Positions 29,976 through 36,051 of a stretch of 64,000 bases of DNA are shown piece by piece. Under the pieces are notes generated by a model. It had not been told where the DNA came from. It saw nothing but the letters and a program-made list of their open reading frames with translations, and made no database searches. This stretch comes from Mycoplasmataceae bacterium (lineage in GTDB: Bacteria; Bacillota_I; Bacilli_A; Mycoplasmatales; Mycoplasmoidaceae), in assembly GCA_020024755.1 (NCBI GenBank), contig JAHHTH010000004.1:128024-192023 (forward strand). Reading direction: 5' to 3'. The translations under genes were made by a program, and so were the position numbers. The stretch's first letter is position 1; every line of letters starts with the position of its first letter.

Positions 29976-31058
29976 ATGCAATGTTCATTGATTAGTAGAA
30001 TAAAACATAGAGAAGTAAACCATGAAGAAATTGGTAAATGAGTAAAAGATAAAAGAACTAATGTTCTAGTATTAAGATTTATTGCTAGTTTATTTGTAAT
30101 AGGTGTACATCTAAGATTTATTTTAAACAAAGGTTATAGTTCAAATTCTATTTCTTTTTCTATAGTAGAATGCATTACTGTTACTGGTGTAGATATATTT
30201 ATAATTTGTACTGCCATATCTTCATACATGAAGAGTAAGAATAACTACAAAAGATATTTGATATTAGTTGGTATACTTTATCTGTGATCATTTTCTGTTC
30301 AATTACAAAACATTATAATGCATAATGATATTGATTATTTAGCATTATTTATTCCTTTCTTTTTTGGAAAGGACTTGTGATATTTAAGAGCATATGTTGT
30401 ATTCTATCCATTAATTCCTATTATAAACAAAGGCCTAAAGGATTTTAACTTAGCAATAATGTTCATTATCTTTTATATGATTTTTACTATAACTCAAAGC
30501 TTTGATATTAGAGAATTTAATATTTCAAGCGGATATCATATTCTTCATTTTATATTCTTATATATGTTTACAAGATCAATGATGATTGTATTCTTTAATT
30601 ATTTTGACAAAAGAAAATGAATATTAATAATATCTGGCTCATTATACTTATTGTTCTTATTATCTAATATCTTAACTACCTATTACATTAAAAGTAATAC
30701 TAGATATTCAGATTATCCAGTAATATTTATGGCAACTTCATTTAGTATCTTCTTTATGTTTTTAGATTTTAAGAAGAACAAGTTTAACAAGTTTATATGT
30801 TTCTTAGGGAGAAACTCGTTGTGATTTTATATATTGGATAATAGATTCTCTTGTATCCATAAATGAGGAATAAGTGGATGGTTCGGTAATATGAATAATT
30901 CATGTGTGTGTGTGTGTGAATACTTATGTGCATTTATTCTTAAAACATTGATCATAATATTAATTATTGTGGTATTCCATTTTATTTATATTGGTATTTC
31001 AAAATTAATATCTAAAAAGAAAGCAAAGAATGCAGAATATATTATATGCAATAAATAA
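29976..31058 (+). CDS. Membrane acyltransferase family 3 (O-acetyltransferase-like)
   Basis: 360-aa frame through six TGAs with ~9-10 hydrophobic segments. N-terminal LVLRFIASLFVIGVHL matches the acyltransferase_3 entry motif. Contains a (TG)8 tract. Confidence 0.72.
30903..30918. repeat. (TG)8 dinucleotide microsatellite inside the acyltransferase CDS
   Basis: tgtgtgtgtgtgtgtg read directly from the sequence, encoding CVCVC about 47 codons before the stop. Confidence 0.97.
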
Positions 31059-31152: not shown

Positions 31153-32097
31153 ATGAAATCTAAAACACTTTTTTTGTTTGAATCGAATTATAGTACCTTA
31201 CTTTCTATGGTTTATTGTTTTAAGAATAATATTAAAATTAATAGAGTTATTAATATATTTCAAGAAAACCAAAAAGGAACTAAGAGCATTCTTACTTATT
31301 TGCATAAAAAATATAATTATTGATGCGGATATCAAGACTTTTTTAAAAAAGTTTATTTTGCTTATTTTAAATTTATTAGAGCTGAAAAGTACGACATTAT
31401 TTTTACTTCACCGCATACACCTTCATATGAATTTGTACGTGAATATTTAAGCCAGAAAGGTTTGAATCCAAAGTACTACTTTGTTGATGATGGGTTAGCA
31501 TTTAAACAAAAAAAATATTGAGATCGTTTTGGTGACAAGATCAATTTGTCTACAAAGATGATTGTAGACTCTCCGAATAAGTTTATTTCCAAAAATAAGC
31601 AAGATGTTGTGAATCTATTCAATGATTTCCCTGAGCTATCAAAGAAACAAAAGAAATATATAAATAATTTCTTTGGATTATCTCTAAAGAAAATGGAAAA
31701 AGAAATGGACTGTATTTTATTAACACAACCGCTGTATGAAGATGGTTTATGTAATTTAGATGATAAACAATTACTTTACAACTTATATATTGATAATTTG
31801 TTAGATGGAAAAATAGAAGCAAAACAATTGTGAATAAAACCACACCCAAGAGAAACACAACTTGTTCGAATTAGTAATAAAAATGTAAACACATTCTATA
31901 TAGAAAGAAATATACCAATTGAGTTATTATTTTTAAATGGTTTGAAAGTAAAAAATATTGTAAGTTTTATTACTTCTACAATTATTTATAAAAAGTTTTT
32001 AGATTGCAATTTTATAAATTTAGATTTGAAATGAGAAAAAGGTATAAATGTAGATGAAATAAGAACTTGTATAAAAAAAACTAATTTTGTCTTATAA
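31153..32097 (+). CDS. Putative sialyltransferase (GT52-like)
   Basis: 314-aa frame through four TGAs, containing track ORF 31546-31833; track ORF 31178-31450 is the wrong frame. Both short bacterial sialyltransferase motifs are present: D/E-D/E-G (YYFVDDGLAF) and HP (WIKPHPRE). Similar in size to CpsK/LsgB. Adjacent to the neu operon. Confidence 0.6.
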
Positions 32098-33151
32098 AAT
32101 TAACAATTAATTTAGTTGCATATTTTAATGTGTTATTCTTACAGTATGGATTACTATGTTTTATTTTTAGATCCTTTAATGATTCGATAGCCTTTAAAAT
32201 GTCTTTTTCCTTACAAGGAATATTTATTATATTGTTACTTCTAATTCTTCCTAATTGTCTATCTCCAATATTTATAATTGGTTTGCAAAGACAAGGCACT
32301 TCAATAATTCCAGATGAAGAATTTCCTACTAAAGCTTTTGAATATGACAACAGTGAAAAGAAATCATCATTGCTAAGAGAAGGGAAGTAATCAAAATTAT
32401 TTTTAGAACAAAATTCCTTGATTAAATTAATGTATGTGTTTCCACCTACATCATTATTTCCACCTAAAAATACAAATTTATATCCATTATCTACTAATTT
32501 TTGGCATGTTCCAAGAAGAATTTTACCTTGGTTTATGTCATTCTTAATTGTTTCAGGATGGAATAATATAACTATGTAGTTTTTGTATTTTTTATAAAAA
32601 CTATTTATTTTAAAATTATGAACATTAGAGCACCCTAGAGATCCAATATTATGCACATTGCTTTTACCCATATTTAGAATGTTTTGTTTATATTGTTCAG
32701 TTGCTGTTAAATGTAATGAAGACATCATGGTTATTGAATGTCTTACAAATTCATCATATGCGCCTAAAGTTATTTCCCCTCCATGTAGATGTATTATAGG
32801 AATGTTCAACATTGCTGCACATATAGCAAAAGGAAGAATTTCACTTCTATCCCCTAATAGCATTAAATAATCAATCTTATTCTTTTTTAAATAATTTGTA
32901 AACTTGGTTTGAAGTTTAGACATAATATCAATGACTTGATATTTATCATTGTTTCTATCTGCATTAACTTTCATAATGTCTGCATTAGGAAAATCAGTTA
33001 ATACACTTTTATATGTAGAACCATATTTCTTTGATAGATGCATTCCGCTAATTAAAATTTTTAAATCAATTTCACTATCTAATTCTTTTAATAGTTTTCT
33101 CATGATTCAATAATCAGCTCTCGAAGTAGTTACATATAATAAATTAGCCAT
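32081..33151 (-). CDS. neuC: UDP-N-acetylglucosamine 2-epimerase (hydrolysing), NeuC-like
   Basis: Track ORF 32081-33103 extends N-terminally through TGA to ATG 33151 (MANLLYVTTSRADYWIM). Also HLHGGEIT, GNSSSGIIE. TAG stop. Confidence 0.87.
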
Positions 33152-34359
33152 TAAAACACCTTCTTATTTAGTAATTCATATGCACTATCATTTAAATGCA
33201 ATCCGTCTAATGAATATTGCAATAGTAAATTATTTTGATCACAAATATATTTATTGATATCAATAAAGTCATCTTTGTATATTAGTTTTAATTCATCATT
33301 TAATATCCTTACCTTGGATATAAATTCTTTCCCTCTATCATTTCTATATATTGTATATGGCACAGATAATACTTTAATTTGTTTTGGTTTTAGTGTCGAT
33401 ATTATCAAACTAATATTTTTTAATATTTCATTAACATTATTTGAAGATGCTAAATCATTACTACCAATTAAAATATAAAGATTATCTATGTCTATATTTA
33501 GATTAGCTGAGTTAATTAATTTAACATATTGTTCTGATCTAATTGTAGCTATCCCTCAATTAGAAATATTTTTAGGAAGAGGTCAATATTCAACTAGCGA
33601 ATCTCCTAACACTACATTTTTCAAATGTTTATTGTGAACGAAACTATTAAATTTAGTTTGTAATGAATTAAAGAGTTTTGACTGATTTGATTTATCTCTT
33701 ATTATGCTTAGTGCAATATTAAAGTCTTCAATATCATCTATATCGATTGATGATATCTTATCCATTAGATAAGCCTGAGTATTTCCTTTTAAAAAGAATG
33801 TTTTTAATTCTAGATATTTTTTAATGTTAGCAATATATATTGCACCATTTGGAGTATATTGTTGCTCAAAAGTTTGTCTTCCATAAGATGATAGTTTTGT
33901 ATCAGAAGTTAGATAATAATTAGTATCTAAGTTCATATATAAAGAAGTTGGTTTTGAAGCTTTGCAAAATGAAACTACCATATTATTGCCATTAAATAAA
34001 TTGAATGCTTCTTTAATATGCTCTGCATTTCTTAATGGAGATGTTGGTTGTAGTAAGCAAAAGGTATCGCCACCATTATAATTTTCCAAAATTAACTTTA
34101 AAGAATCATAACTAGACGTTTTATCACTAGCTTCTTGTTCTGTTCTCTTGTGATATGTCAATTTATCAGCATAAATAATTTTAACATCATTAATATATTT
34201 TTCTGAATCACTAGAGAATACTATTTCATCAAATTCATTAGATTCTATTGCTGCATCAATTGTATAAAAACACAGAGGTTTATTATACAGAAATAGCATA
34301 TTCTTATCTTTTAACCCCTTTGAGCCACTTCTAGCTAATATAATAGCAATCTTTCTCAT
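33151..34359 (-). CDS. neuA: Bifunctional CMP-N-acylneuraminate synthetase with C-terminal SGNH/GDSL esterase domain, NeuA-like
   Basis: Track ORFs 33583-34377 and 33151-33408 are in one frame, and the gap is open with TGA=Trp. N-terminal domain has IAIILARSGSKGLKDKN and LLQPTSPLR. C-terminal domain has SGNH blocks GDSLVEYW, GSND and DGLH. Confidence 0.87.
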
Positions 34360-35408
34360 TATTTTTTTTCCTCTCAAATGAATTTAGAATGCACTATTAA
34401 ATCATCTGCTTCAAAGTCTTGTTCTGCTACTTTGCCCAATAGCTTTTCTCATTCTCATGCACTAATACCATTTCCTGGTCTTTTAGTTGTAATATTCTTT
34501 TCAGAAAAGATGTCACCTTTCTTAATGTTCTTTTTGGCAACAATTGATCTTCTTGCTATAAACTTATTCTTTAATTCAGAATTAGTAACATATTTATTTT
34601 CTGAGCCTAGAGATAATTCCGCTGCATGAACACCTTCTACTAAATTCTTAAATTCTTCTTCATTTAAAGATGCTTTGTGATCTGGGCCTAGAAGATTTCT
34701 ATCAAGAGTAAAATGTTTTTCAATAAATTCTACACCATATGGAATACTCGCTACTGCTGCGTAAATATTTCTAGAATGATCACTAAATCCTATTTTGTTA
34801 TGTTTAAATTCTTTTTTAAATTGTTTTAATACATTTAAGTTGACATCTTCATAAGGAGTAGGATATTCTGTATTACAATGTAATACAGCTATTTGACTAT
34901 CCTTAATTCCATTTGATTTTAATAGTTTTATACATGCTTTAATTTCCTTGATAGAAGACATCCCTGTAGATAATAGAAAATAATTCTTAGGATTATTTAA
35001 TTCTGAAAGTCTTTTGATATATGGATAATTATTAATTTCTCCTGAAGGAATCTTTCAAATTCTTTGCCCAATAGAATTTAAGAAATTAATTGAGTCAATA
35101 TCAAATGGTGTTGCAAATACTTCAATATTTTTATTTTTGCTTTTGACATAATTTCTAAGCATTTTATAATCATCATAACTAAGTTCTAATTTTTTAGTCA
35201 TTTCTAATTGTGATTCTTTTGTTCCGGTAGTTTTCTTTTGATATTCCGCTTTTGGGGCTTTTTTAGATATTAAACTTGAGGATTTAAATACTTGGAACTT
35301 AATTGCATCAACATTATTCTTTACTAATGAATCTACCATTTTTTTAGCTAATTTAATATTACCATTGTGATTGCAACCAATTTCACCTATTATCATTACT
35401 TTGCTCAT
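34359..35408 (-). CDS. neuB: N-acetylneuraminate (sialic acid) synthase, NeuB-like
   Basis: Track ORFs 35055-35408 and 34455-34961 are in one frame, joined and extended through TGAs to TAA 34359. N-terminus IIGEIGCNHNGN. C-terminal SAF domain (KKGDIFSEKNITTKRPGNGIS). Confidence 0.92.
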
Positions 35409-35418
35409 ATAAAACTCC

Positions 35419-36051
35419 TTATTTGTTCTTTTTTAAGAATTTAGCTGGATTACCAACTACCACATCGTTGTCTTTTACATTCTTTCTTACTACTGAACCT
35501 GCACCGGTAATAGAATTCTTACCAATATTTAATTGTCCAAACACAATACTTCCTGATCCAACTCAAACATTATCTTCAATATTTACATCACCATTAATAA
35601 TTGCACCCGGTGATATATTACAATGATTTGCTATATGTGAACCGTGGTCAATAATTGAACCTGTGTTAATTATGTTATTATCACCTATTGTAATATTTGA
35701 TGTAATTGTTACATTAGATCCAATAAAATTACCAGAACCTAATTTAACATCTTTTGCAATGATTGCTGTTTTATCTATTATGTTGACAGTCTTTAAATTA
35801 TATTTTTGTATTTTTTGAAATCATTCTTTTCTTATTTCATTGTTTCCAACAGCGACAATAAAGTAATACTTTTTTAATATATTTACATTTTTGTCTGAAA
35901 TATCATTTGCAATAATTTTAGATATAGAAGAAATTTCTTTATATTTGTCTATACAACCTATAAATTTATACTTTAATTTTGAATATTTATTTATACTTGA
36001 GATCACAGAGTTCGCATGCCCACCAGACCCAATTAACACTATTTTTCTCAT
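35419..36051 (-). CDS. neuD: Hexapeptide-repeat acetyltransferase, NeuD-like
   Basis: Track ORF 35821-36051 extends through TGAs to TAA 35419. N-terminus KIVLIGSGGHA, then left-handed beta-helix repeats (IGDNNIINTGSIIDHGSHIANHCNISPGAIINGDVNIEDNVWVGSGS). Confidence 0.8.

Follow-up and report, generated by a model that had tools for sequence, protein, structure and literature searches.

The locus described here raises the question of whether a short dinucleotide repeat lying inside the reading frame of a membrane enzyme gene is a switch used by the organism or an accident of sequence. The repeat, (TG)8, occupies positions 30903..30918 of the + strand in a 64,000-nucleotide stretch of DNA from a Mycoplasmataceae bacterium (hereafter the window; positions 128,024 to 192,023 of the forward strand of contig JAHHTH010000004.1, assembly GCA_020024755.1). 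It lies within a gene for an acyltransferase-3 (AT3) membrane O-acyltransferase. The original prediction, made from the letters of the window, presented the repeat as a candidate phase-variation switch. As a candidate it is now supported by the nature of the repeat as an insertion, by five other tract-bearing homologues, by the repeat tracts found in the rest of the genome, and by the failure to find MutS and MutL. In our opinion, (TG)8 is probably a real, biologically used slipped-strand contingency switch of the AT3 enzyme. Variation of the tract at high frequency, the substrate of the enzyme and the benefit to the organism are all matters that we infer.

The tract is a perfect 16-base repeat, scored with 100% matches by Tandem Repeats Finder (TRF), in the context ...AATTCA TGTGTGTGTGTGTGTG AATAC.... 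With translation table 4, it is read as TGT GTG TGT GTG TGT G and encodes C-V-C-V-C, corresponding to residues 310-314 of the 360-residue protein starting at ATG 29976, or to residues 315-319 of the 365-residue protein if the TTG is used as the start codon. The in-frame position put forward by the original prediction is thus borne out, as is the AT-rich character of the surrounding gene (23.7% G+C). Its estimate of about 47 codons between the repeat and the stop placed the tract rightly near the end of the gene, the exact count being 45 codons up to TAA 31056-31058.

How unusual such a tract is can be judged from the host genome, a 13-contig draft of 1.446 Mb (28% G+C, 96% complete, TGA read as Trp). 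From a first-order Markov model, the expected number of (TG)8 copies is about 1.5e-4 on each strand, or about 3e-4 genome-wide for (TG)8 and (CA)8 together. In the whole genome, TG/CA runs of 3 units are found 396 times and runs of 4 units 13 times; there is no run of 5-7 units and a single run of 8 units, which is the present tract, located at C8:158926-158941 of the genome. Only three non-AT dinucleotide runs reach 5 units or more, namely (TG)8, a (CT)8 and a (GA)6. In the rest of the genus, represented by 12 genomes, mostly fragmented assemblies, no (TG)6 or (CA)6 was found. The tract is therefore longer than composition explains, has a unit length not divisible by three, and is placed inside a reading frame, as is typical of contingency genes.

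The gene itself (29976..31058, + strand, 360 residues) was delineated from its open reading frame, its translation and its match to Pfam family PF01757. The frame is open from TTG 29961 or ATG 29976 to TAA 31056-31058 and contains six TGA codons read as Trp. The match to PF01757 (Acyl_transf_3) is marginal, with an E-value of 1.3e-7 and a score of 31.5 bits against a gathering cut-off of 31. Lying above that cut-off, it agrees with the earlier assignment of the repeat to an acyltransferase_3 gene. The match covers residues 37-293 of the 365-residue frame and model positions 6-286 of 326; in six-frame scoring at the genome level, the gene obtains 21.8 bits. This branch of the AT3 family is rare and divergent, as a profile search of 1.84 billion representative proteins returned 33 proteins at E <= 0.001. 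No PDB sequence matched the family profile in a profile search, and the best fold match in the PDB (Foldseek), the human transmembrane acetyltransferase HGSNAT, is weak (probability 0.98, E=0.14, TM 0.43).

An alignment of 23 sequences, comprising the window protein and 22 homologues, was used to examine the functional residues. R34 and H45, separated by ten residues in transmembrane (TM) helix 1, are nearly invariant and form the R34-X10-H45 motif (30075..30110, + strand), that is, the R/K-X10-H catalytic signature of AT3 proteins, which is essential in OafA (PMC7448272). In TM helix 2, AT3-only O-antigen acetyltransferases carry an FFXISG motif (PMC7448272). At this place F75 is nearly invariant; distant homologues have F-x-L-I-S-G, and the window protein and its close relatives have I-F-I-I-C-T-A. 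An AlphaFold2 model built on the same alignment (pLDDT 91, pTM 0.89) contains ten long helical segments, the last one spanning residues 309-359. As modelled, the protein therefore has the ten TM helices of the AT3 domain (PMC9833829). Helix 10 is well defined, with pLDDT above 90 beyond residue 311 and a hydropathy segment at 309-347. It belongs to the PF01757 model, since the orthologue of a sister species of the same genus (genome G003) matches model positions 127-324. The predicted activity of the protein is acyl-CoA-dependent O-acylation of a carbohydrate.

The consequences of unit gain or loss were derived by rebuilding the frames for 4-12 units. With 5, 8 or 11 units, proteins of 358, 360 and 362 residues are obtained. 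After loss of one unit (7 units, or equivalently 10), a TAA is met 8 codons on (30941..30943, + strand), giving proteins of 321 and 323 residues, respectively, that end with ...WILMCIYS. After gain of one unit (9 units, or equivalently 6), the TAA is met 12 codons on (30955..30957, + strand), and the products of 325 residues (6 units) and 327 residues (9 units) end with ...NTYVHLFLKHWS. Both truncations lack helix 10 and the Lys-rich tail, whose codons, counted from model helix 309-359, extend over 30900..31055 (+ strand). Rebuilt frames and structural model together uphold the earlier claim that a change of one TG unit shifts the frame and deletes the last TM helix. Every full-length homologue of the alignment keeps a hydrophobic helix at its C-terminus, with basic residues after it, and the loop that precedes this helix is of variable length. 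The truncated protein is expected to be misfolded or inactive.

Comparison with homologues shows that the (TG)8 site corresponds to an 18-nucleotide insertion. Four homologues, at 51-62% identity, have W-[FY]-x-N-[LN]-I-[VL]-[DM]-[YF]-I at this site, and the window protein has W-F-G-N-M-N-N-S-C-V-C-V-C-E-Y-L, which is six residues longer. Because these six residues are absent from the homologues, the tract must have arisen within this lineage, at a tolerant site formed by a loop and a helix cap.

Slippery tracts are found in other members of the family. AT3 homologues were detected by profile search in 33 of 399 genomes of the order, and 41 homologous genes were scanned. A strong tract is present in six of them, including the window gene, each time at a different position. 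In the sister species G003, the orthologue (about 55-64% identity) is split near residue 120 at a G8 occupying G003:C60:15295-15302 and is thus off; a G6 or a G9 would give 352 or 353 residues, and there is no second lesion. The publicly available gene calls are divided in the same way, into P0009 and P0015. The homologue of genome G223, which follows a GT11 glycosyltransferase gene, is likewise off, its frame being broken at a G7 near residue 50. In G243, from another genus of the family, the gene begins with ATG AGA GAT A(AC)13 and its body is in another frame, which corresponds to an off state at the 5' end of the gene (L064 1435-1530; G243:C3, ~221740-221835). Like that of the window, this tract belongs to the TG/AC class, and the sole downstream start would remove the essential Arg. 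In a Logan contig (L029), the homologue is split at an (AT)10 near residue 180 and is off, while (AT)8 or (AT)11 would give 338 or 340 residues. It belongs to a glycan locus encoding, in addition to the AT3 protein, a GT-D enzyme, a nucleotidyltransferase, a HAD phosphatase and a CgtA-like GT2. Finally, the L032 homologue (P0008) contains an in-frame G8 at residues 54-56 and is on; a G7 or a G9 would reduce it to 67 or 81 residues.

The four off alleles (G003, G223, G243 and L029) are each one slippage step from an open frame and carry no second lesion. From the tract density of the window genome, 9 per 1.446 Mb, about 0.27 tract-bearing AT3 genes would be expected among the 41, as against the six observed (Poisson P ~4e-7, or 0.003 with a five-fold background; these values are approximate, the densities of the other genomes being only roughly known). 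To judge from these sequences, AT3 genes of this order repeatedly acquire slippery tracts. Since the on and off alleles come from different species and tracts, they document recurrence within the family and not switching of (TG)8 itself. Independently of this, in G003, the frameshifted AT3 orthologue next to tuf is flanked by two lipoprotein genes, which are closely preceded by a T15 and a T17 (L014 773-787 and 2622-2638; G003:C60).

The window genome contains further tracts of the kind associated with contingency genes. G/C homopolymers show a bimodal distribution, with 77 runs of length 5, two of length 6, none of 7-8 and seven of 9-10. Four of the longest are intergenic (C1:389411-389420, C7:54165-54173, C7:227737-227746 and C10:26313-26322; 9-10 nucleotides), and one intergenic tract precedes a gene with a PAPS-reductase domain. 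Three poly-G tracts are placed between good -35 and -10 hexamers (TTGACA...TATxxT), as in TTGACA-N9-G10-TATTAT, with spacers of 19 and 18 nucleotides for two of them, between TTGACA and TATTAT or TATACT. The genes behind these promoters encode a 963-residue Lipoprotein_17 surface protein, a 195-residue membrane protein and a 950-residue paralogous surface protein. Within genes, a G10 is in frame in a BspA-type leucine-rich repeat (LRR) lipoprotein gene (C8:203286-203295), another G10 splits a membrane protein with a ...SDHG... motif into 569 and 129 residues (C8:40077-40086), and a G9 splits a second membrane protein into 218 and 435 residues (C3:5525-5533). The (GA)6 covers codons 5-9 of an 811-residue paralogue of the 569 + 129-residue protein (C9:84231-84242). 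As for the (CT)8, it makes up the spacer of a near-consensus promoter, TTGACT-[(CT)7CAA = 17 nt]-TATAAT (C8:124158-124186), about 3.9 kb before the first base of the window and 42 nucleotides upstream of the ATG of a 184-residue lipoprotein gene whose signal peptide ends with ...AVSC. AT dinucleotide runs of 6 units or more are absent from the genome although some are expected. Elsewhere in the genus, 11 of 12 genomes have G runs of at least eight. The genome also has seven A/T runs of 13-17, two of which share the context TTAGTCTArCACATTAwwTC-A16/17.

Repeats in promoter spacers are familiar from mycoplasmas, in the form of (TA)n for Vmm of M. mycoides and of poly-A for vlp of M. hyorhinis. 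The (CT)8 and the three poly-G promoter spacers of the window genome resemble these lipoprotein switches. Promoter-spacer switches act on transcription, whereas (TG)8 acts on the reading frame. For (TG)8, a promoter-spacer function was considered and rejected: the tract is in no promoter-like spacer, and promoter-like sites are fewer in this region than in shuffled sequences.

Neither MutS (PF00488, MutS_V) nor MutL (PF01119) was found in the 96%-complete genome, in a search where control profiles matched in 11 of 14 genomes. This gene content points to weak or absent mismatch repair, a condition favouring slippage of mono- and dinucleotide tracts.

From these elements, the following mechanism can be proposed. 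During replication, slippage would add or remove a TG unit, and because MutS and MutL were not found, such slips would stay unrepaired. Alleles with 5, 8 or 11 units would be ON and produce the full enzyme of 358-362 residues. All other lengths would be OFF, translation ending at a TAA after 8 or 12 codons to yield a protein of 321-327 residues devoid of helix 10 and of the basic tail. A later slip would restore the frame. Cells with and without O-acylation of a surface glycan, perhaps a sialoglycan made by the neighbouring neu operon, would then coexist in the population.

Several observations weigh against a selected switch. A search of metagenome contigs with a flank-anchored pattern allowing a variable gap gave no match, so that no second allele was seen; scans for related loci found none in the genome contigs and, in the metagenome contigs, a single contig that was already known. 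In the protein database, the window protein is the sole member of its cluster, and three relatives at 55-62% identity were found besides. For a dinucleotide switch, eight units make a short tract, and the assembled ON state is equally expected of a neutral in-frame insertion. Because the tract is near the 3' end, the truncated product retains nine of the ten helices and all known catalytic residues. Lastly, 35 of the 41 AT3 homologues have no such repeat. These points, together with the facts that the species is known from one genome and that the site is a loop of variable length, can be explained by an incidental microsatellite, that is, a proto-repeat that expanded in a tolerant loop, stayed in frame by luck and has no selected role. 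Switching would then be a mutational hazard, and the truncated forms may be functional. It should, however, be noted that strong repeats are nearly absent elsewhere in the genome (no AT runs of 6 units or more, no G/C runs of 7-8), so that those which persist look selected. Moreover, the six independent repeats in one gene family are far above background, and an accumulation of further lesions is not what the four off alleles display. We therefore hold an incidental origin to be unlikely.

The other explanations fare less well. The repeat, an alternating purine-pyrimidine sequence prone to form Z-DNA, might act on the transcription of the downstream gene or on DNA structure. A co-directional gene of 314 residues with no Pfam match (31153..32097, + strand) indeed begins 94 nucleotides after the AT3 stop, and no terminator-like site is found between the two. 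The tract is nevertheless 235 nucleotides upstream of the ATG of that gene, and little polarity is to be expected because the out-of-frame stops precede the normal stop by about 100 nucleotides only. In addition, the repeats of the homologues are scattered through the AT3 coding region, which designates the AT3 reading frame as the target. An action on the downstream gene is thus very improbable. Selection might instead bear on the Cys-Val-Cys-Val-Cys peptide, whose three cysteines at the start of helix 10 could serve in metal binding, acylation or disulfides, the DNA repeat being a by-product. The CVCVC sequence is missing from all 22 aligned homologues, and with two codons for Cys and four for Val, a perfect 16-nucleotide repeat is unnecessary to encode it; we give this explanation hardly any credence. 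An assembly or polishing artefact, for which nothing specific speaks apart from the draft state of the genome, is the least believable of all, because the frame is intact, the sequence on either side can be aligned with homologues through the site, and polishing does not typically err at dinucleotide runs.

If (TG)8 is a contingency switch, the nature of the switched glycan is of interest. Convergent with the AT3 gene and the 314-residue gene is a sialic-acid operon identified by Pfam matches (32081..36051, - strand). It comprises neuC (32081-33151; Epimerase_2, 6.5e-61), neuA fused to a C-terminal GDSL/SGNH esterase domain (33151-34377; CTP_transf_3, 2.5e-22, and Lipase_GDSL, 7.8e-6), neuB (34359-35408; NeuB, 7.3e-79) and a neuD-like gene for a hexapeptide acetyltransferase (35419-36051; PglD_N/Hexapep). 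The AT3 gene had been described as heading a glycan locus; it does sit at the edge of that locus, beside neuC, neuA, neuB and neuD. The neuA fusion is laid out like the enzyme of E. coli K1 and group B Streptococcus that combines CMP-sialic acid synthetase and sialate O-acetylesterase activities. In these two bacteria, NeuD O-acetylates free sialic acid and the esterase domain of NeuA reverses the reaction (PMC8319020). By this precedent, the locus would already have a cytoplasmic acetylation cycle. An AT3 enzyme, being a membrane protein, could by analogy acylate the glycan after export, as Lag-1 does.

The association between the AT3 gene and sialic acid, as read from these genomes, is one of adjacency only. 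A strict coupling of the two was considered and found no support in their co-occurrence within the genus: G003 has the AT3 orthologue and no NeuB match, and G011 has NeuB and no AT3 match (the genomes are 91-95% complete). The window protein, an AT3 protein, does not belong to any of the known bacterial families of sialate O-acetyltransferases that were compared (NeuO, NeuD, OatC, OatWY and Orf11), none of which is described as AT3 in the accessible part of PMC8319020.

These features can be compared with known phase-variable systems. By mechanism and family, the nearest relatives of the window gene are oafA of H. influenzae together with pglI and lot3 of Neisseria. The latter two carry genic poly-G tracts, a layout that resembles the G8 and G7 tracts of the G003, G223 and L032 homologues. 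They encode AT3 O-acetyltransferases of surface glycans, acting on the pilin glycan and on lipooligosaccharide (LOS), respectively (PMC9558356). They differ from the window gene by their homopolymeric repeat, their Gram-negative hosts and their known substrates. The oafA gene is an AT3 gene switched by tetranucleotide repeats (PMC10505976), and the repeat was found in 61 of 105 genomes (PMC10505976; PMC9558356). The product of oafA O-acetylates LOS; like it, the window protein is predicted to be a membrane O-acetyltransferase with an AT3 domain, to act on a surface glycan and to be switched by slippage of a repeat in its coding region. However, oafA has 8-17 tetranucleotide copies and encodes an AT3-SGNH fusion, whereas the window gene has (TG)8 at the start of helix 10, encodes an AT3-only protein and belongs to a wall-less Mollicute.

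The original prediction drew a parallel with neuO of E. coli K1. In that system, O-acetylation of the sialic-acid polymer is indeed switched by slippage of a coding repeat in an accessory gene (PMC3046976). The parallel does not extend to kinship. In contrast to the AT3 protein, NeuO is a soluble hexapeptide-repeat enzyme folded as a left-handed beta-helix, and its repeat is a heptanucleotide located two nucleotides after the start codon, where in-frame copies also tune the activity (PMC3046976). Within Mollicutes, the vmc genes of M. capricolum offer a precedent for slipped-strand variation (PMC3498834). A coding dinucleotide repeat is found in mmyCImod of M. mycoides subsp. capri, where clones with different unit numbers of the (AG)10/12 tract differ in activity (PMC3498834). 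As in the window gene, out-of-frame lengths reach a nearby stop (PMC3498834). Unlike the window gene, mmyCImod encodes a Type III methyltransferase and has its (AG)n in the 5' part of the gene. Lag-1 of Legionella pneumophila, an AT3-only protein, acts on a surface glycan by 8-O-acetylation of its legionaminic acid, a nonulosonic acid that resembles sialic acid (PMC9558356). If the substrate is the sialoglycan of the neighbouring operon, Lag-1 would by analogy be the closest functional model. It differs from the window protein in that no simple-repeat switch is described for it in the available part of PMC9558356.

The design proposed here, a classic coding-repeat contingency switch, is of a kind already known. 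Random switching of glycan O-acetylation alters antigenicity and sensitivity to serum and phage in Haemophilus, Neisseria, Salmonella and E. coli K1. Surface lipoproteins are known to switch in Mollicutes, and the glycans of these bacteria, with their modifications, have, to our knowledge, been little studied. In the open-access papers searched, no Mollicute was described as having a glycan O-acyltransferase switched by a repeat. The data suggest sialic-acid synthesis combined with random variation of a surface-glycan modification in one uncultured mycoplasma-like organism. A wider view, which we put forward as tentative and rather doubtful, is that AT3 genes have evolved into contingency genes again and again in Mollicutes, repeats having been acquired independently at least six times, twice of the TG/AC class, and that in this organism the switch toggles O-acetylation of a self-made sialoglycan. 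If true, phase-variable glycan O-acetylation would be described for the first time in a wall-less bacterium, and the enzyme would be a bacterial sialate O-acetyltransferase of the AT3, Lag-1-like family, distinct from NeuO, NeuD, OatC and OatWY. Six genes with six different tracts form a concrete set that can be tested, and annotators should not label such split AT3 genes as pseudogenes.

Two further observations concern the distribution of the family. A phage-integrase-family gene is immediately followed by an AT3 homologue from which the first ~60 residues are missing (L036 1925-4065; RCNI01002219.1), an arrangement that hints that some copies of the family are mobile, as neuO is. Assembly GCA_003704445.1 (RCNI01... 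contigs) contains, on short contigs where TGA encodes Trp, at least nine different homologues of this AT3 branch, and probably mixes several Mollicute strains or species.

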